From: Alphaproteobacteria bacterium
GTDB lineage: Bacteria > Pseudomonadota > Alphaproteobacteria > Kiloniellales > DSM-21159
Assembly: GCA_030433005.1 (NCBI GenBank)
Contig: JAUILQ010000008.1
Coordinates: forward strand, 17,106 to 81,105
Length of the DNA stretch: 64,000 nt
Direction of reading: 5' to 3'
Shown: piece by piece, positions 42,385 through 64,000 of the stretch
Layout of the letters: every line of letters begins with the position of its first letter
Position numbering within the stretch: the stretch's first letter is position 1
Notes under the pieces: generated by a model
The model's input: the letters and a program-made list of their open reading frames with translations, nothing else
What the model was told of the DNA's origin: nothing
Databases searched by the model: none
Translations under genes and position numbers: made by a program

Positions 42385-42424
42385 GGTCTTCGCTCCCTCG
42401 TTCTGTCAGGTCCGGGCAGGGTCC

Positions 42425-43186: not shown

Positions 43187-43204
43187 GGCGGCGCGGGCGA
43201 GGTT

Positions 43205-44659: not shown

Positions 44660-44782
44660 GTCGGGTCGATGGCCTTGCTGGGGCTGGTCGGGAAAGGGCG
44701 GGAGTCGCTTCCGGAGGGCCTCAGGAAGGTGCCGCTCGCACGCTCGGGCAGGGCTTCCGGAGGCCGGGACCGCGGGCGGCCG

Positions 44783-45610: not shown

Positions 45611-45649
45611 GCTTGCACCTTCTCCAGGGCTTCGAAGGACGGGCTGCCG

Positions 45650-46201: not shown

Positions 46202-46274
46202 CGGGTCCCTGGGATGAGCGGCGACGCGAGGAATCGGAAGAGTGGCCGCCCCGGCTCGGGACGGGGCCGGCGCC

Positions 46275-46304
46275 CTTATAGGTCAGGGCCGAGCGCGCTG
46301 TCAT
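46275..46304 (-). promoter_or_regulatory. Candidate sigma70-type promoter of the KdsC-SDR-ALDH-NeuA-transketolase operon
   Basis: Minus strand reads ATGACA - 18 nt - TATAAG, about 75 nt upstream of the KdsC-like start. The -10 part belongs to a 15-mer repeated at 53802-53816. Confidence 0.3.
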
Positions 46305-46352
46305 CCCCGCCGGCCGCGCCGACGAGGCCGGGTACCGACCCGGGGCGAGGAC

Positions 46353-46378
46353 GCGCGGCGACAACGCGCGGCGACAAC
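46353..46378. repeat. Perfect 13-bp tandem duplication gcgcggcgacaac x2 in the divergent intergenic region
   Basis: Read directly. Confidence 0.9.
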
Positions 46379-46643
46379 TCGGGGGGCGACCTGCAGGCTG
46401 CCTCGGAAACCCGCAGAACGGGTGCGTGGTGCGGGCGTCGGGAAGTGTATTTTGGATTAGTGCAAGATTAGGTCGCCGCGAGTAAGCGATTTCTTGCCCG
46501 GAAAAACTCATTCTCGAATCGGATCTTCCGAAAGTCGGGATCGCTTGACTGTCTGGCGGCCACAGATAGCATGCGAATGTCTGTGCAGGATAGAAACGCA
46601 AGCAACGATCTGCCGGCGGACCAGGGGCGGGGGGCAGAAGAGA

Positions 46644-48332: not shown

Positions 48333-48346
48333 GGTCCGGACCCTAG
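48329..48346. terminator. Perfect 18-bp palindrome CTAGGGTCC|GGACCCTAG between convergent autotransporter and mmuM genes; possible bidirectional hairpin
   Basis: Read directly. It includes the TAG stop of the autotransporter gene. No U-tract. Confidence 0.3.
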
Positions 48347-48352
48347 GCTGCG

Positions 48353-49276
48353 TCAAACCCGCGCGAAGGCGCGGGCGAGCTCGGCGATGTGCGCCGAGCC
48401 GATGCCGCAGCAGCCGCCGAGAATGCTCGCGCCGCCGGCGTGCCACTGCCGGGCGTAGGCCGCGTAGCGCTCGGGCGTCAGCTCCTCGCGCAGCGGATCC
48501 AGACCCGCGTTGGCCCGGCCAGGCGTGCGCTTCGGCACGAAGGCATTGGCGTAGACGCCGATCGGCAGCCGTCGGCCCGCCGCCTCGAAGGCGGCGACGG
48601 CCTGGCGGACCGCGCGCTCCATGACCTCGGGGCGGCTGCAGTTGAACAGCAGCGCCTCGACGCTGGCCGAGAGCGCCCAGTCCGCCGCCTGCTCGATGGT
48701 CTCGCCCGAGCGCAGGCGCGCCTCCGGGGCCGCCAGCGCCGCCTCGCCGTCATCGAGCGAAAAGGCGATCCAGAGCGGCCGTGGCGCGGCGCGGACCGTT
48801 TCGGCGACGGCCTCGGCCTCGGCGATCAGGCTCAGCGTCTCGCCGAGCCAGAGGTCCACCGAGGGCGCCAGCGCCTCGACCAGGACCGAGAGGATCGCCT
48901 GCGCCCGGCCGGTCTCGAAACCCGCAGGATCGTAGGCCCCGAAGGGCGGCGGCAGGCAGCCGGCGACGCGCACCGGCCGTCCGCTCGCCGTGTCGGCGGC
49001 CCGGCGGGCCAGCTCGCCGGACAGGCGGGCGAGAGCGGCACCGCTTTCGCGGAAGCGCGCCTCGCCGATGTGGAAGGGCACCAGCGCGAAGCTGTTGGTG
49101 GTGATCACCTCGGCGCCGGCCTCGACGAAGGCGCGGTGCGCGCGTTCCACGATCTCCGGCGTCTCGAGCAGCGCCAGCGCCGACCACTCCGGCTGGCGCA
49201 GCGGGGCGCCCAGGCGGGTCAGCTCGCGGCTCATGCCGCCGTCGAGAAGGATCGGGGAGGGGCGGGTCGTGGGCAT
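48353..49276 (-). CDS. mmuM: Homocysteine S-methyltransferase
   Basis: ILLDGGMSRELTRLG N-terminus, ITTNSF, and C-terminal zinc-site GGCCGIGSAHI. Confidence 0.88.
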   Translation of the reverse strand: MPTTRPSPILLDGGMSRELTRLGAPLRQPEWSALALLETPEIVERAHRAFVEAGAEVITTNSFALVPFHIGEARFRESGAALARLSGELARRAADTASGRPVRVAGCLPPPFGAYDPAGFETGRAQAILSVLVEALAPSVDLWLGETLSLIAEAEAVAETVRAAPRPLWIAFSLDDGEAALAAPEARLRSGETIEQAADWALSASVEALLFNCSRPEVMERAVRQAVAAFEAAGRRLPIGVYANAFVPKRTPGRANAGLDPLREELTPERYAAYARQWHAGGASILGGCCGIGSAHIAELARAFARV

Positions 49277-49302
49277 GGCGAAGCCGGGCTCTGGAACGGC
49301 AA

Positions 49303-49330
49303 CGGCCGGGCCCCGTTCGGGACCCGGCCG
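49303..49330 (-). terminator. Imperfect GC hairpin downstream of the NeuB-like gene
   Basis: cggccgggccccg / tt / cgggacccggccg (one mismatch), 31 nt after the stop at 49361. Weak T-rich run follows on the minus strand (ttgccgtt). Confidence 0.4.
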
Positions 49331-49360
49331 GTCGCTAGGTCGCGGCGAGGCGGTCTCGGC

Positions 49361-50410
49361 TCAGTCGAGGTCCTCGAAGGCGTAGTTCTCGTCTTCCTTG
49401 AGGGCGCGCTTCAGCTTGCGCCCGACGACCTTGTCGAACTCGTAGGGCGGCACGCCGTCGTTCGGCACCTTGATCGCGATGTCGTCGGCGGTGATCGTGT
49501 GGCCGGCCGGCAGGTCGCGCGCCGCGACCAGCTTCTTGGCCATCTTGAACAGCGGCTTGGCCTCGCTCGGGTAGGCGCGCTTCTTGCCGTCGCCCAGCGC
49601 CGTGCGGGTGCGCTCGAGGTCGCGGATCATCTTGCGCAGGCCGGTCGGCTCCAGCGAGAAGGCCTGGTCCGTGCCCTTCCAGGCGCGGTTCAGGGTGAAG
49701 TGCTTCTCGATCATCCGGGCGCCCAGCATGTAGGCGACCAGCGGCATGGCGATGCCGTTGTCGTGGGCCGAGAAGCCGATGACGATGTCGGGGAAGGCCT
49801 CGCGGAAGGTCTCGATGACCTTGAGGTTCAGCTCCGACCACTCCGGCGGATAGCCGCTGGTGCACTGCATGATGCAGACGTTCGGGTTGATCGGCATGAC
49901 CGCGTCGTAGGCGCGCTGGGCGTCTTCCATCGTGCCGCCGCCGGTCGAGAGGACCATCGGCTTGCCGATCTCGGCGACGTACTTGATCAGGGGGATGTTG
50001 GTCAGATCGCCCGAGGCGATCTTGTAGGCCGGCATGTCGAGCTCGGCCAGGAAGTCGGCGCTCTTGTGGTCGAAGGCCGTGGAGAAGAAGGTGATGCCGA
50101 GCTCCTTGGCGGTCGCCTGAAGCTCCTTGTAGGCGTCACGGCCGAACTCCAGGAACTCGCGGTGGGCGCCGTAGGTGTCCGCGTAGGCGTTCTCGCTGTT
50201 GTACGGGCTGTCGTACATCTCCTTGGTGAAGAGCGCACGGTTGTCGCGCTTCTGCAGCTTGACCGCCTGGGCGCCGCACTCCGCCGCCGCCCTGAACATC
50301 TCCTTGCACTTCTCCAGGTCGCCCTGGTGGTTGTGCCCGATCTCGGCGATCACGTAGGCATCGCTGTCGTCGGAGATCTCGATACCGTCAATCGTGAGCG
50401 TACGCGCCAT
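49361..50410 (-). CDS. neuB: NeuB-family ulosonic acid (phosphate) synthase with SAF domain; closer to the NANS / KDN-9-P synthase type than to classical bacterial NeuB
   Basis: VIAEIGHNHQGDLEKCKEM, KLQKRD...YDSPYNSENAYADTYGAHREFLEF, WKGTDQAFSLEP, and a C-terminal SAF-like domain. Start ATG 50410. Confidence 0.88.
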   Translation of the reverse strand: MARTLTIDGIEISDDSDAYVIAEIGHNHQGDLEKCKEMFRAAAECGAQAVKLQKRDNRALFTKEMYDSPYNSENAYADTYGAHREFLEFGRDAYKELQATAKELGITFFSTAFDHKSADFLAELDMPAYKIASGDLTNIPLIKYVAEIGKPMVLSTGGGTMEDAQRAYDAVMPINPNVCIMQCTSGYPPEWSELNLKVIETFREAFPDIVIGFSAHDNGIAMPLVAYMLGARMIEKHFTLNRAWKGTDQAFSLEPTGLRKMIRDLERTRTALGDGKKRAYPSEAKPLFKMAKKLVAARDLPAGHTITADDIAIKVPNDGVPPYEFDKVVGRKLKRALKEDENYAFEDLD

Positions 50411-50556
50411 CGTGGATCCGATCGGTGACTTGGAGGATTGGGGGGTGCCGGAGTCGGGCATCGGCTGGGGCCCTTCTGACGTCGCTGGGGTAGTGGCTTG
50501 GCGCCGGCTTGTCCACAGAATTTGTCGGCGGACGGCTGCGGCACTTTCCCGGGGTT

Positions 50557-51659
<1,103 letters not shown>

Positions 51660-51668
<9 letters not shown>

Positions 51669-52598
51669 AATGTCCTCGCGCCCGCGCAGCATCTCGACCA
51701 GCGGCTGCCAGCCGCGGCCCTCGGCGACCGCCCGTCCGCGCTCGGCGATGCCCTCGAGCGTCGCCTTGTCGAGCGGCAGCTCGCCGTGGCACTGGCGGAT
51801 GTCGACCAGGCTGTCGAGGTGCACGAAGTCGTGCGGCGAGTGCTCGTCGAGGTTGGTCAGCACTACCGCGCCGCACTGCATGGCGGTGTTGACCGAGGTG
51901 TTGTTGGCGCGCACGCCGCTGCCGAAGAAGGCCGCGAAGAAGGTGCAGCGCCGCAGGTAGTTGTAGAGCCCGGTGTCCGAGATGAAGCCGAGGAAGAAGA
52001 TCTTGTCGCCGAAGACCCGCTTCAGCTCCTCGTAGGCCGAGGTGAAGGAGTCGTCGAGGCTCTTGCCCTCGTGGATCGCCGCCGAGATGTAGAGGCAGTA
52101 GGACTTGCCGGTCGCCTCCAGCAGGTCGTGCAGCTCGTAGTAGTAGTCGGCGCGCACCTTGTGCGCCATGCCGAAGGTGTAGATCGAGATCTCGACGTCC
52201 TCGGGGAAGGGCACGGCATCGAACAGGTAGCCCGGGCACCAGGCCTCGACGACGTCGTCGTGCAGCGCCTCCAGCTCCTGGGCCAGCGCCTCGTTGCCGC
52301 AGTAGACCGTGCTGGCGCGGCGCAGCAGCTTGGCCTCGACCGGAGTCGCCGAGTAGTCGTGGAAGAACAGCCGCGGCTCGACCTGCGGGCCCCAGCCGTC
52401 GACCAGCGCCTCGAGGCGCTCGGCGTCGCCCTCGGCGAACTCGGAGAGCTTGAGCGACAGCAGCGGCCTGCGGCAGCGCGCCGCCTCCTCGGTGAACAGC
52501 TGGTGCATCGGCAGGCGGAGCTGATCGGCGAGCGCGCGGTTGAAGCGCGCGACGCCGCAGGTCAGCGGGTTCATGTGGTAGCTGAGAATCGAGTCCAT
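51660..52598 (-). CDS. Hypothetical protein, compact divergent GT-B/GT4-like glycosyltransferase suspected
   Basis: N-terminal NPLTCGVARFNRALADQL resembles the GGxxxxxxxLAxxL start of GT4 enzymes. The C-terminal FFAAFFGSGVRANNTSVNTAMQCGAVVLTN resembles the sugar-donor binding half. No firm family. Confidence 0.45.
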
Positions 52599-52614
52599 GT
52601 CGTGCGCGCCCCGC

Positions 52615-53724
52615 TCAGGCCCGCTCGGGCTTCTCGTAGACCAGGACCCGGCGCTTATCGAGCCAGTCCATGGCCTTCTCGAGGTCGGGGCGGCGCTTCA
52701 TGCCCTGCATGACGAACAGCAGGCGCAGCAGGTCCATGTTCATCAGCGTGATGTGGGTGGGGTCGACCTCGAACTCCGTGGTGACGTCGAACAGCGTCGG
52801 CGGCGCCGGATGGAAGCGGGTCGTCAGGTAGATGTACTTCGAGGTGATTCGGCAGAGGTTCTCGACGGCCTTCTGGACGTCGAGCACGCGCAGGTGCTCG
52901 AAGACCTCGCGGCAGATCACCAGCTCGTAGCCGTCGCTCGGCAGGTCGATGTCGGTGATCGAGCCGATGTGGATGCGCTCGCGGATCTCCGGCGGCGCGG
53001 TGTCCTTGCTGGCCTGGGAGAAGTCGACGCCGTCGGCCTTAACGCCCAGCTCGTGCAGCAGGTAGATCAGGTTGCCCGGGCCGCAGCCCATGTCGACGAT
53101 GCTCTTGGCCTGGAAGACGTCGCGGATCAGCTCGGGATTGCGGCCCTCGCGCTTGCGCCGCGCCTCCAGCTGGTAGGAGTTGGCCTCGTCGCGCCATTCG
53201 GCGTGGAAGTAGTCGGCGTCGTAGGCGTCGGCGCCCTCGGCCGACTGGTTCTGGACGAAGTCCTCGAACTTCGAGACCTGCTCGGTCAGGGAGTCGACGT
53301 CCAGGAACTCCCGCACGCGCTTGGTCGAGGAATCGGTCACCGTGTCGAGATAGACGATCTCGATGCCGTGCTTCTCGCAGACCGCGACCTCCTCGGCGGG
53401 CAGTCGGCCTTCCCAGTCCTTGCCCTTGACGTAGTACTTCGGCTGCAGCGCCTCGAGCACCGCGGCGGTCGTGCCCTCGGAGATGTGCACGTAGGAGATC
53501 GGCTTCAGCGCGGCGATGACCCGGGCGCGGGCGTCCTGCGGCAGCAGCACCCGGTGCTTCTTCGAGACGTAGGCGTCGCCGGTCAGGTTGCAGAGCACCG
53601 GCACGCCCAGCTTGGCGGCTTCCTCGAAGTAGGCGACGTGGCCGGCATGCAGGGGATCGAAGCCGCCGTCGACCATGGCGACGGCCTGACGGTGAGCGCT
53701 CAGCGCATCGGTCGAGAGAATCAC
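52615..53724 (-). CDS. Fusion protein: cytidylyl/adenylyl-transferase (HxGH nucleotidyltransferase, RfaE-II/TagD-like) + class I SAM-dependent methyltransferase
   Basis: N-terminal VDGGFDPLHAGHVAYFEEAAKLG ... YVKGKDW. C-terminal motif I IVDMGCGPGNLI and post-I DGVDFS. GTG 53724 is preceded by GGAG at -11. The upstream part of the track ORF is not protein-like. Confidence 0.75.
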   Translation of the reverse strand: MILSTDALSAHRQAVAMVDGGFDPLHAGHVAYFEEAAKLGVPVLCNLTGDAYVSKKHRVLLPQDARARVIAALKPISYVHISEGTTAAVLEALQPKYYVKGKDWEGRLPAEEVAVCEKHGIEIVYLDTVTDSSTKRVREFLDVDSLTEQVSKFEDFVQNQSAEGADAYDADYFHAEWRDEANSYQLEARRKREGRNPELIRDVFQAKSIVDMGCGPGNLIYLLHELGVKADGVDFSQASKDTAPPEIRERIHIGSITDIDLPSDGYELVICREVFEHLRVLDVQKAVENLCRITSKYIYLTTRFHPAPPTLFDVTTEFEVDPTHITLMNMDLLRLLFVMQGMKRRPDLEKAMDWLDKRRVLVYEKPERA

Positions 53725-53845
53725 GAAGTCACTCCGAACGGGAAGCCGCGCCAGGATTCGGCGCGAGAACGGCGGCGCAGGGTGCAGCTGCGAAAAGACA
53801 GCGGCGCCCTTATAGGAAAAAGCACCGGCCCGCGCCACCCGTCCG

Positions 53846-54604
53846 TCAGGGCTGCCCGGCGGAAAAGCCGTCGGCCCGGCCCGGCGCCAGCAGGCCCTTG
53901 CGGGCGAAGGCGATCTGGCGGCCGTCGCCGGTCACGTGGACCGGCTCCAGCCCGTCCTCCGCGAGCCGCTCGATCAGCGCCAGCGCGAGATCGCGCGGCG
54001 CCTCGCCGTCGTCCCCCGCGGGCGGCTCGCCGTCCTGCGGTTCGGTCAGCACCAGCAGCAGCGGCGCGCGCTCGCGCAGGGCCTGCAGGTCGCTGCGGCC
54101 GTCGCGCAGGTCGCGGGCCGAGACCACGCCGGCGGCGCCCTGCGCCAGCTCGGCCGGCAAGGGCTGCCCCGGGGCATGGAAGCGCTCGATCGGCAGGGCC
54201 AGCAGCTCGGCGGCGAAGCCGGGCAGGGGATGGGACTCCGGGGCGCCGACGAGCAGGATCCGCCGGATCTCGGCGCCGGCCGACCGTCCGTCGCGGACCA
54301 GCGCGATCAGCAGCCCCTCGTAGGACGCCTCGACCGCCGCCTCGGCGAGGTCGTAGGGTTCGGCGCCGAGCGCAGCGAGGCTCTCGCCGTGGCGCCGGCG
54401 CAGCAGGGCGGCGGTCAGGGCGAGCAGCCGGTGGCGGTGGCCGTTCGCGGTCTCGACGCGGCTGCGCAGCCGGCGCAGCGTGCGCCGCGTCGCCTCCTGG
54501 CCCTCCTCCAGCTCCAGCAGCTGATCGGCGAGGCGGGTCAGTGCCCGGCCCGGCCCGCGGCGGTCGTCGTCGGGGGAGGGGGCAACGTCGCGCTCGTCGG
54601 CCAT
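53846..54604 (-). CDS. Hypothetical protein (252 aa) with helical Arg/Glu/Leu-rich N-terminus
   Basis: Coding-like bias. Lies between two operon genes with 2-nt spacing to the upstream stop. N-terminal LTRLADQLLELEEGQEATRRTLRRLRSRVE is coiled-coil-like. No family recognised. Confidence 0.55.
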   Translation of the reverse strand: MADERDVAPSPDDDRRGPGRALTRLADQLLELEEGQEATRRTLRRLRSRVETANGHRHRLLALTAALLRRRHGESLAALGAEPYDLAEAAVEASYEGLLIALVRDGRSAGAEIRRILLVGAPESHPLPGFAAELLALPIERFHAPGQPLPAELAQGAAGVVSARDLRDGRSDLQALRERAPLLLVLTEPQDGEPPAGDDGEAPRDLALALIERLAEDGLEPVHVTGDGRQIAFARKGLLAPGRADGFSAGQP

Positions 54605-54606
54605 CG

Positions 54607-55644
54607 CTAGACCTCCTCCAGGGCGAAGCCGTCTGCCCGGAGCTCGTCCACGAAGGCCGCGCCCATGGTGTCGGCGCGGCGGCTCTCGTTGGGACGGAAG
54701 GCCTCCTCCGGCCGACGCGTCGGCAGGTCGGGGGCCAGGCCTTGGCGGACGAAGAAGGCGTTGGTCCCGGAGCTGTCGCAGGCGACGAGTCGGTAGCCGC
54801 GCTCGGCGGCCAGGGCCTCGAGCGCCGCCAGCGAGGCGCCGAAGCAGTGGCGCCGGCGGTCGAGCGGCGCGCCCAGCGGAACCGTCACCCGCGCCTCCGG
54901 GCCGAAGCGGTCGTTGTATTCCAGGACCAGCACGCGCGGGGTGCAGGCAGTCATCGCGCGCAGCACCCAGTAGTCGTAGGAGTCGATGTCGAGCGAGAAG
55001 AGATCGAGCTCGCCGGCGAGGCCCGCCTCCTCGATCAGCCGGTCGACGTTGTCGGGCGTGACCAGCGCGGTGACCACGCGCACCCGGCCGGTCGCGCCGA
55101 AGCGGGCGGCGGCGACCGGCGTCGCCTCGGGGTTGGCGTCGACCATCAGGCCGGACCAGCCGGCGCTGTGCGCCAGCAGCCCGCTGTTGCCGCCGGTACG
55201 GCCCGAGCCGAGCTCGACGAAGCGGCGATTCGGTGCGCCGCACAGCGAGAGCAGGGCGAGGACGTAGCCGTCCTCCTCGTTCTGGCTCATCAGGCTGAAG
55301 CGCCGGGCGTCGAGGGCCAGGCGGTCGGGCGCCTCGCCGGACAGCGCCTCGATCTCCTGGCGCAGCAGCGCGCGCAGGCCGCTCTCGGTCTTGCGCAGGC
55401 GCTTGGCCATCACCCAGGTCTCGGCCTCGAGCCGCTCCAGCTCCTTCTGCATCTCGGCCTGGCGCTTGGCGGCGCGGCCGGCGGCCTGGGTCAGCAGCGC
55501 CAGCTGCTCGGCGGTCGCCGCCGGCGGCCGCGGCCGGCGCAGCCGGGCGCGCAGGCCCGCCGAGCCTTCGGCGGTCGAACGGCCGAGCTCGGCCAGGCGG
55601 GCCAGCAGGCCGGCGCGGCGCGCCTCGGGCGTCTCCCTGCTCAC
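54607..55644 (-). CDS. FkbM-type methyltransferase-like protein with ~110 aa coiled-coil-like N-terminal extension
   Basis: C-terminal FVELGSGRTGGNSGLLA ... DLFSLDIDSYDYWVLRAM resembles FkbM/Methyltransf_21-type domains. N-terminal KRQAEMQKELERLEAETWVMAKRLRKTE. GTGA overlap with the upstream gene. Confidence 0.6.
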   Translation of the reverse strand: MSRETPEARRAGLLARLAELGRSTAEGSAGLRARLRRPRPPAATAEQLALLTQAAGRAAKRQAEMQKELERLEAETWVMAKRLRKTESGLRALLRQEIEALSGEAPDRLALDARRFSLMSQNEEDGYVLALLSLCGAPNRRFVELGSGRTGGNSGLLAHSAGWSGLMVDANPEATPVAAARFGATGRVRVVTALVTPDNVDRLIEEAGLAGELDLFSLDIDSYDYWVLRAMTACTPRVLVLEYNDRFGPEARVTVPLGAPLDRRRHCFGASLAALEALAAERGYRLVACDSSGTNAFFVRQGLAPDLPTRRPEEAFRPNESRRADTMGAAFVDELRADGFALEEV

Positions 55645-56921
55645 GAGGCCTCGGCCCGGCCGGAGGGGCCGAGCGCCAGCGGCGCCGAGATCGGCTGCAC
55701 GCCGAGCAGCCCGCGCTTCGGATCGAGATGGCGGATCGCGAGATCCAGGTGGGTGCCGACGAAGTTGGGCTCGGTGAAGTAGCAGGTCGTCGGCACCTTG
55801 AGCAGCGGACCCAGGTAGGCGAAGCCGCCGTAGGTGCAGTGCAGGGCGCTGGCGTGGGCGACCAGGGCCGACTGGACCGCCAGGTTGTCGCGCGGCTCGT
55901 AGAGCTGCGAGGCGTCGAAGACGTTGGGATGGCCACGGCCGAGCGCGTCGCTGTGGTCGTCGAGCCGGGTGCCGGTATTGAGCAGCACGACCTTCTGGCG
56001 CTCGGCCAGGCCCTCGATCAGCCGCGACAGGAAGGCGTCGGTCTCGGGCCCCTGGGTGAAGCAGCTGGAGTGGTAGAACTTGAGCGCGACGTAGGGCCCC
56101 TCGAAGGGCAGGGCGGGGCGCTCGTAGGTCGCGCTGATCGGCTGGATGTCGATGTGCTTCATCAGGCGGTCGGCCGAGTAGCGGCCGCGCCAGATGTTGC
56201 GGAACAGCGTGTACATGACGCTGGGCGAGAGGAAGGCATAGTCTTCCAGGCCCAGCTTCTCGGCCGCGCGGCGGTAGATCTCGCGCTCGAAGTCGTTGGG
56301 CAGCACGCCGAAGCCCTTCTTGCCGCCGGCCTGGGCCTCCTGGGCCGTCGTCTTCTCGACGAACTCCTCGACCGTGATCAGGTCGAAGAGGTCCAGGTAG
56401 CCGTCGCAGACGCCGTGGTACCAGCTGGCGGCGCCGCCGCGCGAGATCGCGATCATGCGCCGGGACGGCACGCCGCGGCGGCGCGCGAAGTAGCGAAGGA
56501 AGGGGATCCAGTAGAGGATCTCGAAGCCGATCTCGGTGGTCCAGGGGCCGATCAGGATCGGCCGCTCGGGGGGCGGCGCCCCCTCGCTCTCCGGTGTCGG
56601 CTCGGCGAAGGCGTCGCGCACCACCAGCCGGCAGATCCGCGGCGTGACGACCTCGGCCTCCTGCAGCGTCTGGAAAGAGGTCTTCTCGGTGTTGGTCAGG
56701 CGCGTCGGGAAGCGCAACAGGTAGCGCCCGCCGATAAGCCGGCGCAGGGTCACCAGGTTCTCGCGCGCCTGGTTGAGCCGTGCCAGCTGCTCGTACTGCC
56801 GCTCCGCGTAGCGCCGCTCGCTGCCCTGCAGCGAGGGATCGAGCAGCTTGCGGGTCCGCCAGACGGCGCGCTTGACCAGGCGCAGGGCGCGCTCGCCGGG
56901 GGACAGCTTGACCAGGGCCAT
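55641..56921 (-). CDS. Uncharacterised protein, family Q copy 1 (GT9/heptosyltransferase-like GT-B architecture suspected)
   Basis: 426 aa. Paralogue of 60372-61796 (shared ILIGPWTTEIGFEILYWIPFLR, FEGPYVALKFY, VVLLNTG, DNLAVQSALVAHA, YGGFAYLGPLL). The layout of these blocks mirrors GT9 enzymes. By eye only. Confidence 0.7.
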   Translation of the reverse strand: MALVKLSPGERALRLVKRAVWRTRKLLDPSLQGSERRYAERQYEQLARLNQARENLVTLRRLIGGRYLLRFPTRLTNTEKTSFQTLQEAEVVTPRICRLVVRDAFAEPTPESEGAPPPERPILIGPWTTEIGFEILYWIPFLRYFARRRGVPSRRMIAISRGGAASWYHGVCDGYLDLFDLITVEEFVEKTTAQEAQAGGKKGFGVLPNDFEREIYRRAAEKLGLEDYAFLSPSVMYTLFRNIWRGRYSADRLMKHIDIQPISATYERPALPFEGPYVALKFYHSSCFTQGPETDAFLSRLIEGLAERQKVVLLNTGTRLDDHSDALGRGHPNVFDASQLYEPRDNLAVQSALVAHASALHCTYGGFAYLGPLLKVPTTCYFTEPNFVGTHLDLAIRHLDPKRGLLGVQPISAPLALGPSGRAEAS

Positions 56922-56953
56922 GAGAGGGTCCGATTCCCGGATTGAAGGGTGGC

Positions 56954-58681
56954 TCAGCGCCGTGACGAGGAGCGCAGGCGGGAAAGCGCCCGCCGGCCGC
57001 GCTTGTCTAGTCGCTTGAGGCGGCCGCGGGCAAGGCGCAGGGCGTTGCCGGCGACGATCGAGGTCGCCCGCGCCGGCCGGCGGACCAGCCGGCTGTGCAG
57101 CCAGCGGGCGCCGCGCCCGGTCGCGCGCAGGGCCCGGCCGCTGAGGCTGACCTTGTCCCACTTCTTGGCGTTGCGCCCGGCGCCGACGGCCAGCAGGTAG
57201 AGCGCCGGCGGCAAGAGCAGGGGCTGCAGCAGGCGCGGCCAGGCCGGCAGGCGCGCGGGCTGCAGCGCGGCCGCCGAGACCAGCGCGTCGACGGCGAGCG
57301 GCGTCGAGGGCCGGTCGAGGCCCTGCGGGCGCAGGAAGTCGCCCACGAAGCGCCGGATGCTGGCCAGCTCCTCGGGCGTCTGCTCGATGCCCGCGGAGAG
57401 CTGGGCGAGATGCTCCTCGAAGTCGGCCGCGGTCATCAGGAAGCCGTCGCGGGTCAGGTGGGCGAAGTGCACCATGCCCTCCTGGCTCTCGGCGATCTCG
57501 GGATCGAGCACGGTGTAGCAGCGCTTGCCCAGGATGCCGGCCTCCAGCATGGCGCTGGTGTTGATGCCGACGACGGCGGCGGCGTGGTGCAGCGAGTCGA
57601 AGTAGTCGGCGCGCGCCGTCTCGTTCACCGGGTAGCCGCCGAGCCGGGGGTGCACCGCGAGGTTCTCGGCGTCGCGGATCTCCGGCGCGTTCCACTGCTC
57701 GGCGAACTTGGCGCTGCCGGGGTGCGGGCGAATCAGCACGCCGATGCTGCGCAGCCGCGGGTCCTCGGCCGCGCGCAGCGCGGCCAGCCAGCGCTTGAGG
57801 AAGACCGACTCGGTGCGCGCGATGAACACCGACGAGCAGGTGTAGAGGATGAAGGGGCGGTCGGGATCGAGGCCGACCTGGGCGCAAAAGGTCGCGCGGT
57901 CACGGCTCGGACGGCGCTCGAACCAGGGGTCGAACAGCTGGGCGCCGGTGATCGCCACCCTGTCCGGCGCGACGCCGTGCAGCTCGACCGCCTCGTCGCG
58001 CTGGAAGGCGTTCCAGACCAGCATGCGGTCGGGATCGAGCGGCACCACGCCCTTGTTGGTCAGGTTGTCCCAGCTGGCGACGCAGTGCACGGCCGGCACG
58101 CCCAGGCGGCGCGCGATCTTCAGGTATTCGGCCTGCATCGAGTTGTGGTCGACCAGCGGCGTCACGGCGACCAGGTCCGGCCGCGTCGCCTGGACCGCGC
58201 GCAGCAGGCGGCGATCGAGCGGCAGCGCCAGCTCTGCCCAGTAGAGCAGCCGCGAGAAGCGTACCGCGAGGCGTTCCCGGGTCGCCTGCGGCAGCGCGCC
58301 GAAGCGGCGGAACGGCGGGTAGAGGAAGCCCTCGGCGCGGCGCGCGCACTTGACGGCGTGGCGCAGCCGCGGCGTCAGGTAGCGCAGGTAGTTGCGCAGC
58401 GCCCGGACCTGGTAGGCGAGCTGGGTCCAGAGATCGTTGCGCGGCGGCAGCGCCAGCAGCTCCAGGGACGGCAGCTCGGCGACCAGGCGGTCGGCCAGCG
58501 CGGCGACGTCTGCCGTGACCTTCTCGTGGGCCTCCTCGTAGCCGAGCACCACGGTGTGGCCGCGCGCCGTCAGCTCGCGCAGCGTCGTCTCGTAGTTCCG
58601 CAGGTACATGAAGTGGCGGACCACGAAGAGGATGCGCAGCGGCCGCGGCGCCTCAGGGCGCGCGGGGGAGGACTCGGTCAT
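56954..58681 (-). CDS. Uncharacterised protein, family P copy 1 (GT-B-like, Capsule_synth-like C-terminal half, Arg-rich tail)
   Basis: 575 aa. Paralogue of 58678-60375 and 63011-64000+ (shared ASWDNLTNKG, ITGAQLFD, FILYTCSS, IRPHPGS, GINTSAMLEAGILG, MVHFAHL). ATGA overlap with the upstream paralogue. Confidence 0.75.
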   Translation of the reverse strand: MTESSPARPEAPRPLRILFVVRHFMYLRNYETTLRELTARGHTVVLGYEEAHEKVTADVAALADRLVAELPSLELLALPPRNDLWTQLAYQVRALRNYLRYLTPRLRHAVKCARRAEGFLYPPFRRFGALPQATRERLAVRFSRLLYWAELALPLDRRLLRAVQATRPDLVAVTPLVDHNSMQAEYLKIARRLGVPAVHCVASWDNLTNKGVVPLDPDRMLVWNAFQRDEAVELHGVAPDRVAITGAQLFDPWFERRPSRDRATFCAQVGLDPDRPFILYTCSSVFIARTESVFLKRWLAALRAAEDPRLRSIGVLIRPHPGSAKFAEQWNAPEIRDAENLAVHPRLGGYPVNETARADYFDSLHHAAAVVGINTSAMLEAGILGKRCYTVLDPEIAESQEGMVHFAHLTRDGFLMTAADFEEHLAQLSAGIEQTPEELASIRRFVGDFLRPQGLDRPSTPLAVDALVSAAALQPARLPAWPRLLQPLLLPPALYLLAVGAGRNAKKWDKVSLSGRALRATGRGARWLHSRLVRRPARATSIVAGNALRLARGRLKRLDKRGRRALSRLRSSSRR

Positions 58682-60375
58682 TTGCCGCCCTTCTCCTGGG
58701 TCGCCCGGCGGCCGAGCAGGTGGCGTGCGCGCTGCACGATGTGGCGCCGCGCCAGTTGGTTCGTACGCTTCGCCGCCCGGCGCGCCCGGTTGCCGACCCA
58801 GCGCGCGGGGCGTCGCCAGAGGTGCTTGCGCAGCCGCAGGCCGAGCTCGTGCAGCTGGCGCAGGCGGTGCTCGCGCAGCGACATCTCCGACCAGCGCTTG
58901 CGCGCGCGCAGGTCCTCGACCGACAGCAGGTAGAGCGCCAGCGGGTAGTAGAGCGCGCGCAGCAGCGGCGCCGTCACGCCGGCCCGCTGCGGCCGGGGCC
59001 GCAGCGCGGCGACCTCCCCGATCGCCGCGGCGAGCTGCGGGGTCGCCGGCCGATCGATGCCGTTGGGACGCAGGAAGTCGGCGACGAAGTCGCGCTCCGC
59101 CTGGCTCTGGCCGGGATGCTCGACGGCATCGGCGAGCTGCCGGAAGTGCTCCTCGAAGCTGTCGGCGGTCTTCAGGAAGCCGCCGCGCAGCAGGTGCGCG
59201 AAGTGCAGCATGCCGCCCTGGCTCTCGGCGACCTCGGGGTCGAGGATGGTGAAGCAGCGCCGGCCGAGGATCGCCGCTTCCAGCATGGCGCTGGTGTTGA
59301 TGCCGACGAGGCCCGCCGAGTGATGGAGCGAGTCGTAGTAGTCGTCCTGCGCCTGCGGCGTCACCGGATAGCCGCCGGCGCGCGGGAACAGCACGGCCTG
59401 ATCGGGGAAGCGCGCGATCAGCTCGGCGACCTGCTGGGCGAACTTGCTGCTGCCCGGATGCGGGCGGACCAGCACGCCGATGCCGCGCAGCGCCGGCGGC
59501 GGGTCGTCGCGCAGGCGGGTCAGCCAGCGCTCCAGGAAAACCGCCTCGTAGCGCGAGATGAAGATCGAGGAGCAGGTGTAGAGCAGGAAGGGACGGGTCG
59601 GGTCGAGGCCGACCTGGCGGCAGAAGCTCTCGCGATCCCGGCTCGGCCGCCGGTCGAACCACTGGTCGAACAGCTGCGCGCCGGTCACCGCGATGCGCTC
59701 GGCCGGCACGCCGTGCAGCGCGCGCGCCTCCTCGGCCTGGTGGCGGTTCCAGACCACGACGCGGTCGGGGCAGACCTGGATCAGGCCCTTGTTGGTCAGG
59801 TTGTCCCAGCTGGCGACCAGCAGGGCCGAGGGCACGCCTTCGCGGCGGGCCTGCTTGATGTACTCGGTCTGGTTCGGGCCGAAGTCGAGCAGCGGCGTGA
59901 CCAGCAGGCAGTCGGGCCGCTCGGCCTCGAACAGCGCCTCGATCGGCCGCGCCGGCGGCAGCGCGCCCTCGATCGACTCGGCGAGGCCGCGGATGCGCGG
60001 CAGCAGGCGGCGGCGCCAGGCCTCGGACAGCCGGGCGAGGCGGCGCAGCGGCGGGAAGACGAAGGATTCGGCGCGCGCCGCGCAGCGCCGGGCGCCCTCG
60101 AGGCGCGGATCGCAGTAGCGCAGGAAGTCGTTGAGCACGCGCACCTGGGAGGCCAGCGAGGCCCAGCGATCGTCGCGTGCCGGGGCCTGGATCAGGCGGA
60201 TGCGCGGCTGCTCGCGCAGCAGGGCCTGGGTCGCCTGCTCGATCTCGGGCGGCAGCAGGTTGCGGCTGCTCTCGTAGGCCAGGACCACCTCGTGGCCCTG
60301 CTCGGCGAGCAGCGCCAGGGTCGAGCCGTAGTTGCGCAGGTACAGCAGGTTGCGCATGACGAAGAGGATCTTCAC
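58678..60375 (-). CDS. Uncharacterised protein, family P copy 2
   Basis: 565 aa. N-terminus MKILFVMRNLLYLRNY is GT-B-like. Same conserved blocks as copy 1. ATGA overlaps at both ends. Confidence 0.75.
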   Translation of the reverse strand: MKILFVMRNLLYLRNYGSTLALLAEQGHEVVLAYESSRNLLPPEIEQATQALLREQPRIRLIQAPARDDRWASLASQVRVLNDFLRYCDPRLEGARRCAARAESFVFPPLRRLARLSEAWRRRLLPRIRGLAESIEGALPPARPIEALFEAERPDCLLVTPLLDFGPNQTEYIKQARREGVPSALLVASWDNLTNKGLIQVCPDRVVVWNRHQAEEARALHGVPAERIAVTGAQLFDQWFDRRPSRDRESFCRQVGLDPTRPFLLYTCSSIFISRYEAVFLERWLTRLRDDPPPALRGIGVLVRPHPGSSKFAQQVAELIARFPDQAVLFPRAGGYPVTPQAQDDYYDSLHHSAGLVGINTSAMLEAAILGRRCFTILDPEVAESQGGMLHFAHLLRGGFLKTADSFEEHFRQLADAVEHPGQSQAERDFVADFLRPNGIDRPATPQLAAAIGEVAALRPRPQRAGVTAPLLRALYYPLALYLLSVEDLRARKRWSEMSLREHRLRQLHELGLRLRKHLWRRPARWVGNRARRAAKRTNQLARRHIVQRARHLLGRRATQEKGGK

Positions 60376-61796
60376 GGCCGCGCCCCCGAATCGGCTCCCG
60401 CGCCCGGGCCGGCGACCGCCGCCGTCGCCGCCTCGTCCATCGCCGCCACCGGCAGGAAGGCCAGGGCGCCGTAGCCCTCGCGGTTGAAGGCGCGCAGCGC
60501 CAGGTCGAGGTGGCTGGAGACGAAGTGCGTGTGGGTGAAGAAGCTCAGGGTGTCGACGCCGAGCAGCGGCCCCAGGTAGCTGAAGCCGCCGAAGGTGCAG
60601 TAGAGCTTGTCGGCGTGGGCGACCAGCGCGGTCTGGACCGCCAGGTTGTCGCTCGCCCCGAGCAGCGGCGTCGCGTCGACCAGGCGGTCGCGGGGAATGC
60701 CCGGCAGCAGCTCGGCGGCGTCGCTGTGGTCGTCGACACGCAGGCCGGTATTGAGCAGCACGACGCGGTGCCGCTCGGTCAGCCGCCGCAGCAGCCGCTC
60801 GACGAAGGGCGCGACGCGCTCGCCCTCGAAGAACTCCGAGCGGTAGAACTTGACCGCGACGTAGGGGCCCTCGAAGGGCAGGCCCTCGGGACGCGGCAGG
60901 TCGCGCGGCAGCGGCGCGTAGTCGAGCGCCGGCAGGAAGATCTCGCCGCCGAAGCGCTTCAGCCAGGTCGTGCGGAACAGGCCGTAGAGCGCCGCCGGGT
61001 AGAGCGTCCGGTGTCCTTCCAGGCCGAGCTCTTCTGCGATGTCGGCGACCAGCCGGCGCTCCGGCTCGGTCGGGCGGAACGGCTTCTTGCCCTCGTGCTC
61101 CTGCTCGATCTCTTCGCCGAGCGCCCGGAACGCGTCCGGGCTCAGGCGGTCGAACAGCTCGACGTAGCGGCCGGCGATGTCCTGGTACCAGGCGCCGACG
61201 CCGCCGCGCGAGATCGCCACGACCCGCTCGCGCGGGATCCCGGCCTCGCGCAGGTAGCGGCGCAGCAGCGGGATCCAGTAGAGCAGCTCGAAGCCGACCT
61301 CCATGGTCCAGGGGCCGAGCACGATGGGATGGTCGCCGGGACCCAGCACCTCGGCGAGGTCGGGCTGCTCCAGGCCGCGGTCGATGGCCAGCAGCTCGAT
61401 CAGCCGGGCGTCGGCCGACTGGCGGTCCGCCGGGTCCAGCGGGCCGAGGCCGCGGGCCAGGGTGTCGCGCAGCGTCGCGATGTAGGGCTTGGGGCGGAGC
61501 TCGGCGCCGAGCCGCTCCAGCCAGCGCGCCGGCAGCCCGCGCCTGGCCTCGCCGGAGAGCTTGGCGGCGGCGCTGTCGACGAGCCGCCAGAAGGCCTCGC
61601 CGCGCCCGGCTTCCGGCGTCTCGGCGACGGCCGGCGGCAGGCTGCGCTCCAGGAAGTCCAGGCGCTCGGCCGGCGCCAGCCGGCCGTAGCCGGCCTTGGC
61701 CAGGGCGCGCGCGCGCGCCGGCGTGTCGGCCCGACGCTCCAGGTCGCGCAGCCTGGCCTGGAAGCGCCGTTCGGCGAGCTGCTTCAGGAGGTCCAC
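60372..61796 (-). CDS. Uncharacterised protein, family Q copy 2
   Basis: 474 aa. Same blocks as copy 1 (IVLGPWTMEVGFELLYWIPLLR, FEGPYVAVKFY, VVLLNTG, DNLAVQTALVAHA, FGGFSYLGPLL), with a longer helical N-terminus. Confidence 0.7.
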   Translation of the reverse strand: MDLLKQLAERRFQARLRDLERRADTPARARALAKAGYGRLAPAERLDFLERSLPPAVAETPEAGRGEAFWRLVDSAAAKLSGEARRGLPARWLERLGAELRPKPYIATLRDTLARGLGPLDPADRQSADARLIELLAIDRGLEQPDLAEVLGPGDHPIVLGPWTMEVGFELLYWIPLLRRYLREAGIPRERVVAISRGGVGAWYQDIAGRYVELFDRLSPDAFRALGEEIEQEHEGKKPFRPTEPERRLVADIAEELGLEGHRTLYPAALYGLFRTTWLKRFGGEIFLPALDYAPLPRDLPRPEGLPFEGPYVAVKFYRSEFFEGERVAPFVERLLRRLTERHRVVLLNTGLRVDDHSDAAELLPGIPRDRLVDATPLLGASDNLAVQTALVAHADKLYCTFGGFSYLGPLLGVDTLSFFTHTHFVSSHLDLALRAFNREGYGALAFLPVAAMDEAATAAVAGPGAGADSGARP

Positions 61797-61854
61797 CCGC
61801 TGGTCCCTTCGGTTGCGGCGCGCCGTCCGCTGCGCCGCGCCGCCGGATCGGCCA

Positions 61855-62847
61855 TTATCGCCCGACCGTCAAGCCCTCGAAAGCCTCGGCCGGCAGCGCC
61901 TCGGGGTCGCGGGCGTAGAGGCCGTACCAGCAGCGCTCGGCCTCGCCGTGGGCGGTCGGCTTGCGGAACTCCCGGGCCTTGGTCAGGCCGCGCTCCGCGA
62001 AGAAGCGGTCGACCCCGCCGCTGATCTCCTCGGTCGCGGTGATCTCGATCATGACGGTCTTGAGGCCCGGATCGGCGAAGCACGTGCCGCCGCCCGCCAG
62101 CACCTCCAGCTCGCCCCCGTCGACGTCGATCTTGACGTGGGTCGGCCGCGGCAGCCCGAGCGCCTCGATCGTCGAATCGAGAGGCCGGCCGACGACCGGC
62201 AGCACGTGTGCCGCGCCCTCGTCGCCCTTGCCGGCGAGCTCCTCGCTGCCGTGCATCGCCGAGCCGGCCTCCAGGTTGCGGAAGCCGAAGGAGAGCAGCC
62301 GGTCGGCGTCGGACAGGGCGTAGGGCAGCGGCACGACCTGCGCCTCGACGCCGTTGAGCACCAGGTTGCGGTTGAGGTCCGTGTAGTTGGCGAAGGCCGG
62401 CTCGAAGGCCACGACCTTCAGCTCCGGCCCGTGCAGCTTCGCGGCGAGCAGGCTGTAGACGCCGGTATTGGCGCCGATGTCGTACAGCACCTCGCCCGGC
62501 GCCAGGCAGGATTCGATCCAGGCGATGGTCCAGGGCTCCTTCAGGGCCGCGCGGTGCCGCAGGTAGGACGAGCGCGTCTCGGCGTGCAGCAGCACCTCGG
62601 CGCGCTCGTACTCCAGGCGCTTGACCATGCGGATGCCCTGGAGGGCGTCGATCTTGTCGCGCTCGGTCATCGAATCGAGCGCGGTCCGGATCACCTCGTG
62701 GCGCTTGTCGATGTGCAGCTTGCGCACGCTCTTGAGCAGCCGGGCGTAGGCCTTCTCGGGATCCTCGACGATCGCGCGCACCGGCTCGCCGCCGCCGGCG
62801 AGCCGCTTCAGCTTCTTCATGGCCTTCGTCGCCGACAGCTCTTTCAT
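61855..62847 (-). CDS. FkbM-family methyltransferase with ~100 aa helical N-terminal extension
   Basis: VLYDIGANTGVYSL (FkbM motif), VVAFEP, HVKIDVDGGELEVL. Start ATG 62847. Confidence 0.8.
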   Translation of the reverse strand: MKELSATKAMKKLKRLAGGGEPVRAIVEDPEKAYARLLKSVRKLHIDKRHEVIRTALDSMTERDKIDALQGIRMVKRLEYERAEVLLHAETRSSYLRHRAALKEPWTIAWIESCLAPGEVLYDIGANTGVYSLLAAKLHGPELKVVAFEPAFANYTDLNRNLVLNGVEAQVVPLPYALSDADRLLSFGFRNLEAGSAMHGSEELAGKGDEGAAHVLPVVGRPLDSTIEALGLPRPTHVKIDVDGGELEVLAGGGTCFADPGLKTVMIEITATEEISGGVDRFFAERGLTKAREFRKPTAHGEAERCWYGLYARDPEALPAEAFEGLTVGR

Positions 62848-63010
62848 CGGGGGATCCTGGAATGCGGGACGGCGCCGACGGCCCGGAAGAAGCCGGCCGC
62901 ACGCCACGCGCGCCCGCTCCCCCCGTGCCCTGCGGCAAGGCCGGCTGAGATAGCAGATTTCACCGTGGTGCGGTCAAGCGACAGGCGTGCGCGCCGACCG
63001 GTGGCTTGCA

Positions 63011-64000
63011 TCAGCCGCCGCCGGCCCGACCGCCGCTCGGCGGGTCTCCCGAGGCCGGGCCGGCCCGGGCCACCGCCTCGCGCTTGGCGGCGTCGAGCGA
63101 ACGGTGGCGCAGCAGGGCGCCCGGCAGCCGGGCGGCGATCGCCAGCAGCCGGCCGCCACGGCGCCGCAGCCGGCGCAACCGGTACCAGAGGTTGCCGCTG
63201 TGGCCGTCCTGCGCCGGCGACAGGCCGCGGCTCAGGCGCTGCAGCAGGGGATGCTGGCGCAGCCACTTCTTGCCGGTGCGCTGGGCGTCGAGCAGCAGGA
63301 ACAGCCGGGCCAGCGGCCACAGCAGCAGCCGCAGCCCGCGGCTCGCGGTCGGCAGGCCCTGGTCCAGCGGCTTCGCAACGGCCAGGCGCTCGACCGCATC
63401 GGCGAGCAGCGGGGTCGCCGGGCGCTCGAGCCCGTGCGGCCGCAGGAAGGCCTCGACCGAGGCGGCGCGCGCCTGGTTTCCGGGGCCGCCATCGTCCGGG
63501 TCGCCATCGTCCGGGCTGCCATCGTCCGGGCTGCCATCGCCCGGCTCGGCGCGCAGGGTCGCCGCCAGCTGCGCCAGGTGCTCGTCCAGCGTCTCGGCCG
63601 GGCGCACGAAGCCGTAGCGGGTCAGGTAGGCGAAATGCAGCATGCCATCCTGGGCCTGCTCGGTCTCGGCGTCGCGGATGGTGAAGCAGGGCCGGCCGAT
63701 GATCGCCGCCTCCAGCATCGCGCTCGTGTTGATGCCGACGACGGCGGCCGCGTGATGGATGGAGTCGAAGTAGAGCCGGCGGTTCTCCTCGGTCACCGGA
63801 TAGCCGCCGCTGGCCGGCCGCACGACGACCCGGTCGAAGGCGGCGATGCGCGGGTCGTTCCACTGCGCCGCCCGCTTGGTGCTGCCCGGGTGCGGCCGGA
63901 TGATCACGCCGGCCTCGCGCAGCTGCGGATCGTCGCTGGCGCGCAGCGCCGTCAGCCAGCGCACCAGGAAGGCGGACTCCAGGCGCGAGATGAAGATCGA
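63011..64000 (-). CDS. Uncharacterised protein, family P copy 3 (C-terminal 329 aa; N-terminus beyond window end)
   Basis: Frame is open to nt 64000 (…SIFISRLESAFLVRWLTALR aligns with SSIFISRYEAVFLERWLTRLR of copy 2). Shares IIRPHPGS, GINTSAMLEAAIIG, MLHFAYL. Confidence 0.75.
   Translation of the reverse strand, partial: SIFISRLESAFLVRWLTALRASDDPQLREAGVIIRPHPGSTKRAAQWNDPRIAAFDRVVVRPASGGYPVTEENRRLYFDSIHHAAAVVGINTSAMLEAAIIGRPCFTIRDAETEQAQDGMLHFAYLTRYGFVRPAETLDEHLAQLAATLRAEPGDGSPDDGSPDDGDPDDGGPGNQARAASVEAFLRPHGLERPATPLLADAVERLAVAKPLDQGLPTASRGLRLLLWPLARLFLLLDAQRTGKKWLRQHPLLQRLSRGLSPAQDGHSGNLWYRLRRLRRRGGRLLAIAARLPGALLRHRSLDAAKREAVARAGPASGDPPSGGRAGGG
63488..63547. repeat. In-frame 15-bp tandem repeat x4 (gccatcgtccgggyy) inside family P copy 3
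   Basis: Read directly. Encodes GDGSPDDGSPDDGDPDDGGP on the minus strand. The insert is absent from copies 1 and 2. Confidence 0.9.

Follow-up and report, generated by a model that had tools for sequence, protein, structure and literature searches.

We focus here on two families of paralogous genes, P and Q, that lie side by side at one end of a window of 64,000 nucleotides from an alphaproteobacterium of the Kiloniellales (GenBank assembly GCA_030433005.1, contig JAUILQ010000008.1), the window being the whole stretch of DNA that was analysed. The genes are transcribed from the minus strand in the order P3, FkbM, Q2, P2, P1, Q1 (Table 1), as an earlier reading made from the letters alone (the sequence-only reading) had it and as the open reading frames (ORFs) confirm. 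Consecutive genes overlap by 4 nt at Q2/P2 (GTGA), at P2/P1 (ATGA) and between Q1 and the gene downstream (GTGA), again as described earlier; the FkbM label once given to this downstream gene (54607-55644) did not hold, as it has no Pfam FkbM match and is FkbM-like by eye only. The gene at 61855-62907 is a member of the FkbM family, scoring 46.2 bits against PF05050 (cut-off 22.7) and 82 bits against TIGR01444 (cut-off 37.7), and its true start may be an internal ATG at about 62847. Since the G+C content of the window, about 72%, produces long spurious ORFs in all frames, genes were chosen by the G+C content of third codon positions (GC3), which is 0.95-0.97 for all genes of the array. Long ORFs (52597-55782 on the plus strand and others, up to 1061 codons) run antisense to the real genes and are of low complexity, rich in Arg, Ala and Pro; they are artefacts of the 72% G+C and not genes.

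P1 and P2 share 52% identity over 549 aa (E 3e-179) and their DNA 72% over 1294 nt, which bears out the paralogy and the alignable DNA claimed before. The P3 fragment is 46% identical to P2, and Q1 and Q2 are 45% identical across their C-terminal 311 aa. A regular-expression search found all the conserved blocks quoted earlier for P and Q at equivalent positions, with one correction: P2 reads VTGAQ, not ITGAQ. A length of 565-575 aa, given earlier for all P proteins, is right for P1 and P2 and unreadable for P3, of which only the last 329 codons are visible; the P3 orthologue in Tistlia consotensis USBA 355 has 574 aa. Tistlia has the same gene order, with 1:1 orthologues that are 72-87% identical (Q1 87% to SAMN06265365_107177, P1 82%, Q2 78%, P3 72% and the 345-aa protein downstream of Q1 72%), as against about 50% between paralogues. 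The duplications are thus old and each copy has been retained, and the idea that the P and Q paralogues are recent duplicates is rejected. Upstream of P3, the Tistlia locus (L001, 2113-5568) encodes a fourth P of 541 aa together with a small methyltransferase and, on the opposite strand, a third Q; the end of our window probably cuts the array, and further P and Q copies probably lie beyond it.

Table 1. Features of the array and of the surrounding glycan locus. HMM, hidden Markov model; SAM, S-adenosylmethionine; GT, glycosyltransferase; CMP, cytidine monophosphate; SDR, short-chain dehydrogenase/reductase; ALDH, aldehyde dehydrogenase.
Feature	Position	Strand	Description
P3	63011->64000	-	C-terminal 329 codons; frame open to base 64000; window end cuts gene
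FkbM-family SAM-dependent methyltransferase	61855-62907	-	PF05050 E 7e-12; TIGR01444 E 6e-23
Q2	60372-61796	-	474 aa; HMM match E 3e-132; stop overlaps P2 start (GTGA)
P2	58678-60375	-	565 aa; SWDNLTNKG 188-197, RPHP 304-307, NTSAMLEA 360-367; basic C-terminal helical tail ~469-554
P1	56954-58681	-	575 aa; HMM match E 3e-220; 32 nt upstream of Q1
Q1	55641-56921	-	426 aa; called from ORF and GC3; N-terminal helical region (~1-104), then GT9-like GT-B core
345-aa protein	54607-55644	-	Start overlaps Q1 stop (GTGA); N-terminal coiled region; C-terminal half methyltransferase-like by eye only
252-aa protein	53846-54604	-	No family match; homologue only in Tistlia locus among those examined
HldC/TagD-like nucleotidyltransferase fused to class I methyltransferase	52615-53724	-	PF01467 and methyltransferase domains; RfaE domain II E 5e-20
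312-aa GT-like protein	51660-52598	-	NNTSVNTAM motif (NNTS), like GT-B C-terminal domains; no Pfam match
CMP-ulosonate cassette context	38681-50461	-	NeuB, homocysteine S-methyltransferase, KdsC-like phosphatase, SDR, ALDH, PseF-like CMP-transferase, fused transketolase, Capsule_synth-like C
Homocysteine S-methyltransferase	48353-49276	-	PF02574 E 2e-56; embedded alongside at least 3 methyltransferase genes
Autotransporter-like gene	46644-48332	+	562 aa; signal peptide; C terminus ...YRF; interrupts cassette
Capsule_synth-like C protein	38681-40438	-	PF05159 21 bits vs cut-off 20

Folds, signatures and relatives of P and Q

AlphaFold2 models were built from alignments of 60 sequences for P and 70 for Q. 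The P2 model (predicted local distance difference test, pLDDT, 91; predicted template modelling score 0.87) is a canonical GT-B structure of two Rossmann domains, followed by long basic helices (~469-554), and hydropathy prediction gives P no membrane spans. Foldseek returned 273 matches in the PDB at E ≤ 1e-3, and the top 50 are all GT-B enzymes. For Q, the model (pLDDT 87) has an N-terminal helical region and a two-Rossmann GT-B core, with 91 matches at E ≤ 1e-3 and, again, GT-B enzymes throughout the top 50. Both families thus belong to the GT-B superfamily, as had been suggested for P from sequence, and a profile-profile comparison of P with Q found no relationship.

The best PDB neighbours of P are 2-epimerases of the NeuC type acting on uridine diphosphate (UDP)-GlcNAc (E 4e-10; template modelling (TM) score 0.66 on target), followed by GT4 (MshA, BshA and WaaG among them), GT28 (MGD1) and GT1 enzymes. 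These top matches to NeuC and other epimerases raise the question of whether P resembles NeuC in function, as a nucleotide-sugar 2-epimerase or hydrolase supplying the NeuB step rather than as a transferase; two P members match PF02350 (E 3e-5), and the window cassette has no NeuC. Against this stand the arrays of up to 8 P copies, the P-P(-P), P-Q, P-GT2 and P-methyltransferase fusions, the many P loci that have no NeuB, a locus (L075) with a bona fide Epimerase_2 gene besides its P genes, and the four paralogues kept as 1:1 orthologues. We consider an epimerase role very improbable and have rejected it.

Conservation was scored over 157 P domains taken from 50%-identity cluster representatives. 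Positions kept in 95-100% of them are S189-W190-D191, K196, N210, E216, H221, D237, S269 and E277 and, in the C-terminal half, R304-P305-H306-P307, N360, E366, Q386 and H391. RPHP is kept in 152-156 of the 157 domains and E366 in 153, T361-S362 as a pair in about 98%, and T361 and S362 are each kept in 91-93% (about 99% if Ser/Thr exchanges are counted), which gives the family the signature SWDxLTxK, RPHP and NTSxxxE. The (K/R)XHP motif of the KrkA, WbbB and KpsC transferases of Kdo (3-deoxy-D-manno-octulosonate), and of sialyltransferases, contacts cytosine and the CMP phosphate; in KrkA the phosphate and ribose of CMP are bound by the His of this motif together with two Ser at the N-terminal end of a helix and a Glu that follows four residues on (PMC12887879). 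T361-S362...E366 of P have the same spacing as the Ser/Ser...Glu of KrkA. We read the RPHP of P as the (K/R)XHP cytidine/CMP-binding motif and the residues around it as a predicted nucleotide site.

The same half of P, with its HP...NTSxxLEA pattern, had been likened to KpsC/KpsS. The half is nearly invariant across the family and has the CMP-binding motif; membership in KpsC/KpsS is not supported. The motif is present in P yet is not specific to Capsule_synth, because sialyltransferases share it. P1, P2 and P3 have no PF05159 match at E ≤ 1, and none of 60 P members, scanned against Pfam alongside 70 Q members, has one at E ≤ 10; the KpsC/KpsS motif QXXXD has no counterpart, as no i,i+4 column pair reaches Q ≥ 60% and D ≥ 60% in the 157 domains; and KpsC, WbbB and KrkA are absent among the top 50 Foldseek matches listed. 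P is thus not a member of the KpsC/KpsS Capsule_synth family. Other known families fare similarly. The P and Q proteins of the window have no Pfam match at E ≤ 1, and searches of PDB chain sequences with P, Q and C profiles gave noise only. Faint Pfam matches among the 60 P members are to Glyco_transf_4 in 19, Epimerase_2 in 2 and Glyphos_transf in 1, and none of the 15 Pfam families listed is a sialyltransferase family. PF13439 stays below threshold in its 19 members (best E 1.4e-4), neither PF00534 nor a conserved EX7E was found, and P is not assigned to GT4; nor is it assigned to TagF, with PF04464 in a single member of the 60 (E 0.012).

The significant family match is of another kind. NF046086, the model of the BFO_1060 family, is matched by 56 of the 60 P members at E ≤ 0.01 (best E 1e-10) over P residues ~165-325, and these members match no other NCBIfam model. 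P1 and P2 score 26-27 bits (E 2e-6 to 5e-6), far under the curated cut-off of 200 bits, so that P is a distant homologue of BFO_1060 and not a member. BFO_1060 proteins carry a TagB-type domain in CDD. Two members in Tannerella forsythia, Tanf_01245 and TFUB4_00887, adjoin pathways for CMP-pseudaminic acid (Pse) and CMP-legionaminic acid (Leg) and a methyltransferase; knock-outs lose the terminal Pse or Leg residue, with in vitro proof pending (PMC5420450). A second profile link, by hhalign, joins P to the family of the Capsule_synth-like C protein of our window (probability 62%, E 8e-5, 278 columns, IRPHP aligned with IRVHP) and is suggestive only.

The structures nearest to Q are GT9 heptosyltransferases, namely TibC, WaaC, WaaF and a Veillonella GT9 enzyme (E ~1e-6), at TM scores of only 0.31-0.45. 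Q resembles GT9 enzymes most, as proposed earlier, but weakly, and not by family models: PF01075 matches 4 of the 70 Q members, all at E ≥ 0.046, and TIGR02193 matches 2 (E 0.008), so that Q is not a GT9 member by HMM. Q has an invariant set of its own (E130, G132, E134, YW, RG, DDH, N346 and Q350). Neither P nor Q has its own model in Pfam (2025 copy) or NCBIfam (June 2026), and the families, as the sequence-only reading had ventured, appear undescribed there; so do the P-Q pairing and the signature motifs.

Distribution, fusions and gene neighbourhood

The P HMM finds 6,974 cluster representatives at E ≤ 1e-3, 2,152 of them at E ≤ 1e-30, and P relatives are encoded at no fewer than 570 loci when one genome is taken per species. 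Our locus analysis covers the best 73 of these at least 570 loci, a few of which overlap on the same contig. They come from Acidobacteriota (mainly Vicinamibacterales), Alphaproteobacteria, Actinomycetota, Planctomycetota, Chloroflexota, Nitrospinota, Verrucomicrobiota, Elusimicrobia and Fibrobacteria, nearly all as metagenome-assembled genomes (MAGs); the only named cultured isolate is Tistlia consotensis USBA 355 (78% identity). A tblastn search with P2 of 72,556 plasmids gave zero matches, and hence no annotated homologue from a cultured organism there.

Among 139 top P representatives, 56 consist of P alone, 33 are P-Q, about 22 P-P, one P-P-P and 4 P-FkbM proteins, and 20 carry another extension, GT2 and Methyltransf_24 included; Q also occurs fused behind GT2 domains. 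In the P-Q fusions P precedes Q, which is the order of P1 and Q1 in the window, and the split P1/Q1 genes are the equivalent of these natural fusion proteins. Very long relatives join several modules (P0361, 1546 aa; P0365, 1429 aa; P0433, 1685 aa) as P-P-P, P-Q-P and P-GT2-P-x, and point to assembly-line-like glycan synthases. A Vicinamibacterales chromosome holds an open frame of 1762 codons (L052, 9946-15231). The P-Q, P-P and P-FkbM fusions, the ABC-2 exporter link described below, the BFO_1060 homology and the likely copies past the window are all absent from the sequence-only reading.

Neighbours were called from HMM and phmmer matches. Single-linkage clustering had put P and Q together with GC-rich antisense ORFs in a single cluster, and neighbour clusters with antisense-looking representatives were treated as artefacts. 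Thirty-nine of the 73 P-centred loci are fully flanked (±10 kb); a gene not found within these 10 kb may still lie elsewhere in the genome. These hold 1-8 P copies (median 4). Within 10 kb of P, Q is found in 31 (79%), NeuB in 15, a CMP-transferase in 16 and either of the two in 21 (54%); a Pfam-confirmed ABC-2 permease and ATPase of the Wzm/Wzt kind (ABC, ATP-binding cassette) is present in 17 (44%), FkbM in 11 and the nucleotidyltransferase-methyltransferase fusion in 12. From the other side, 80 Q-centred metagenome loci were collected, of which 12 encode P and Q in a single ORF; of the 43 that are at least 8 kb long, 32 contain P, and NeuB and the nucleotidyltransferase-methyltransferase fusion are found in 25 each. 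The co-occurrence of both families with CMP-ulosonate genes, which the sequence-only reading had put forward as a check, is found across phyla.

At least three kinds of ulosonate gene sets lie near P. The first, a block of NeuB, KdsC-like phosphatase, SDR, ALDH, CMP-transferase, transketolase and C, is that of the window and is also found in very distant taxa; the second is NeuB with a CMP-transferase-methyltransferase fusion; the third is the classical set of NeuB, Epimerase_2 (NeuC) and CTP_transf_3. The window-type block stands beside P genes in MAGs of Alphaproteobacteria, Fibrobacteria, Gemmatales and Vicinamibacterales and in one unclassified MAG (L025, L037, L008, L019, L043 and L065). 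Two of these loci are minimal: L025 is limited to P, Wzt and Wzm besides C and the ulosonate block, and L037 to P, FkbM and the ulosonate block with C. In the window, the NeuB-to-C block (40453-50461 and 38681-40438, minus strand) is conserved as a unit. It looks like an uncharacterised CMP-ulosonate pathway, and we speculate that it yields a 3-deoxy-ulosonate, the terminal carbon of which SDR and ALDH oxidise to give an ulosaric acid such as 3-deoxy-D-lyxo-heptulosaric acid (Dha). The C family has at least 4,095 matches at about 55% identity across phyla, and C has an RVHP motif and four invariant cysteines (C99, C106, C129 and C132) that possibly form a metal site. Some sources label C-family members as 'predicted nucleic acid-binding protein'.

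The nucleotidyltransferase-methyltransferase gene bears on a further alternative, in which P is a TagF/TagB-like phosphotransferase that takes an alcohol phosphate from a cytidine diphosphate (CDP)-alcohol, supplied through this HldC/TagD-like fusion, and builds or decorates a teichoic-acid-like phosphodiester polymer. UniRef names two Tistlia copies of P as CDP-glycerol glycerophosphotransferases, the TagB-type domain of BFO_1060, the single PF04464 match and the TagD-like gene in the locus point the same way, and the cytidine motif is equally compatible with CDP donors. The gene is missing, however, from 56 of the 73 P loci, including both minimal loci, and it tracks Q (16 of 17 loci, p=0.003) and NeuB (odds ratio (OR) 37, p=4e-6) rather than P; PF04464 goes undetected in 59 of the 60 members. 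We regard a phosphotransferase role as decidedly unlikely.

In the window itself, one minus-strand glycan locus extends from 37521 to past 64000. From 37521 it encodes a GT4 enzyme, C, transketolase, the PseF-like CMP-transferase, ALDH, SDR and the KdsC-like phosphatase, then, beyond the plus-strand autotransporter-like gene, the homocysteine methyltransferase, NeuB, Gmd, the 312-aa GT-like protein, the nucleotidyltransferase-methyltransferase fusion, the 252-aa and 345-aa proteins, Q1, P1, P2, Q2, FkbM and P3; ManC is present as well as Gmd. The nucleotidyltransferase-methyltransferase fusion matches 5x9q and 2b7l in the PDB, and the 312-aa protein matches there only designed repeat proteins, which is noise. 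Homologues of the 345-aa protein, for which a Pfam scan found nothing, FkbM included, recur in 15-16 of the 73 P loci. The presence of a homocysteine S-methyltransferase in a glycan locus suggests that the pathway consumes many methyl groups or recycles methionine. The gene at 46644-48332, the only plus-strand gene within the locus, has no Pfam or NCBIfam match, and its 562-aa product looks like an autotransporter or outer-membrane beta-barrel.

Proposed role and known systems

From the folds, motifs, fusions, co-occurrence and orthology that are observed, we infer which donors and acceptors are used, whether the modules polymerise, what methylation does and how the glycan is exported in this organism. 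P and Q would act in the cytoplasm as a pair of GT-B glycosyltransferases, soluble or peripheral, that assemble a surface glycan. P would be the cytidine-nucleotide-dependent module, in which CMP is bound by RPHP and (T/S)S-x3-E, while the catalytic or acceptor side is provided by the N-terminal domain's invariant SWD...K loop, and most likely it transfers the CMP-ulosonic acid of the neighbouring NeuB/phosphatase/CMP-transferase cassette. For Q, a distant GT9-like module, the most likely role is to attach the partner sugar, possibly to the ulosonate in the way that WaaC acts on Kdo. The anciently diverged paralogues (P1-P3, Q1-Q2 and more past the window) may install different linkages or residues of the repeat, and FkbM-type methyltransferases may O-methylate the product or cap the chain. 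The glycan would be built on a lipid acceptor at the inner membrane face and exported by an ABC transporter; in relatives, the product would exit through an ABC-2 exporter of the Wzm/Wzt type.

Stated generally, P and Q are, with high probability, paired glycosyltransferase modules of a ulosonate-associated glycan pathway. On balance we also favour the full reading, that the paired modules assemble a methylated ulosonate glycan with P as the CMP-ulosonate transferase, where the assignment of P draws on its motif, remote homology and gene neighbourhood. As a tentative proposal, P and Q may found two new CAZy-level glycosyltransferase families, which would form a widespread modular polymerase (coupled genes or P-Q, P-P and P-P-P fusions) for ABC-exported methylated ulosonate heteropolymers, with P as a new canonical GT-B class of CMP-ulosonate transferases, dominant in uncultured Acidobacteriota (Vicinamibacterales), Alphaproteobacteria, Actinomycetota and other soil and freshwater phyla.

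Several points weigh against P as CMP-ulosonate transferase. First of all, CDP-polyol donors would suit (K/R)XHP no less than CMP-sugars. Second, P has the HP and lacks the conserved [DE][DE]G of the GT-B sialyltransferases (GT38, GT52 and GT80), it lacks the QxxxD of retaining Kdo transferases, and sialyl-, Kdo- and TagF-type structures are absent among its top 50 Foldseek matches listed. Third, about half of the fully flanked P loci have no NeuB or CMP-transferase within 10 kb, and NeuB is present in 18 of 47 P-centred loci with Q against 3 of 26 without it (OR 4.8, p=0.017; all loci contain P). The locus counts are moreover not fully independent, as they cover the top-scoring loci, a few of which share part of a contig. 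Fourth, no Wzm/Wzt gene was found within the window. Finally, the ulosonate transferase could be C instead of P, because C has RVHP and always accompanies the transketolase-type cassette.

The last point leads to the alternative that P is an ordinary glycosyltransferase of GT4/GT28 type, using UDP- or guanosine diphosphate (GDP)-hexoses to build a neutral methylated backbone, to which C or Q adds the ulosonic acid. It would account for the GT4 and GT28 enzymes among the nearest folds of P, the sub-threshold Glyco_transf_4 matches in 19 of 60 members, the presence of Gmd and ManC, a C protein that has RVHP and travels with the cassette, and a NeuB that is commoner where Q is present. P, however, has no EX7E; the invariant Arg of its RPHP is the residue that contacts cytosine in CMP-dependent enzymes; its sole significant family match is to candidate nonulosonic acid transferases; and the minimal loci hold no other donor pathway. 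We thus judge a hexosyltransferase role for P unlikely and retain CMP-ulosonate transfer as the favoured one.

Only a few transferases are so far known to install nonulosonic and related acids in bacteria: knowledge of them was scarce as of 2017 (PMC5420450), and the definition of new families such as GT118 and GT140 was still under way in 2025-2026 (PMC12887879). P, with about 7,000 representatives and a predicted CMP-type site, occurs beside several kinds of CMP-ulosonate pathway and is fused to a second unnamed glycosyltransferase family. If P is a ulosonate transferase, this would explain how a large part of the uncultured soil and freshwater microbiome builds sialic-acid-like polymers, and the products are probably such surface polymers of mostly uncultured soil and water bacteria. 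It would also give genome annotators two new glycosyltransferase models and glycoengineering new enzymes. As Tistlia consotensis USBA 355 is an isolate and carries the syntenic locus, the question appears directly testable.

In kind, the system falls among those already known, those of GT-B glycosyltransferases and of glycan polymerases with several modules in ABC-transporter-dependent pathways, the dual-module KpsC being an example. KpsC, KpsS, WbbB, KrkA and KpsS1 (PF05159; GT107, GT99, GT140 and GT118) share with P a marginal profile link through the C gene of the window, and differ in their highly modified architecture where the GT-B of P is canonical. BFO_1060 is closer: like P, it combines a GT-B/TagB-like domain and an HP motif with a location beside genes for a CMP-nonulosonate pathway and for a methyltransferase (PMC5420450). 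P, on the other hand, is longer (480-580 vs 445 aa), has a basic helical tail and no [DE][DE]G, and occurs in multi-copy arrays and fusions and in other phyla. TagF and TagB (PF04464) resemble P in being GT-B-like and dependent on cytidine nucleotides, and their label has been propagated onto the two Tistlia P proteins, whereas the PF04464 model finds only 1 of 60 P members (E 0.012) and no TagF structure appears in the top fold matches. Streptomyces teichuronic-acid loci with TarS-like glycosyltransferases were considered and are not related. For Q, the GT9 enzymes WaaC, WaaF and TibC are the nearest structures and give faint HMM matches; GT9 enzymes use Kdo acceptors, and an HldC-like nucleotidyltransferase is found together with Q. 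Q departs from them in its TM scores (0.31-0.45), HMM matches (E ≥ 0.008), own invariant residues and extra N-terminal helical region.

As a model for P-Q as a whole we take the capsule polymerases of Neisseria meningitidis serogroups W and Y, which hold a hexosyltransferase and a sialyltransferase domain in one chain. The domain families of P-Q differ from theirs, and P-Q would resemble them as polymerases in having two glycosyltransferase modules, in one chain or split over translationally coupled genes, an alternating hexose/ulosonate polymer and ABC export.

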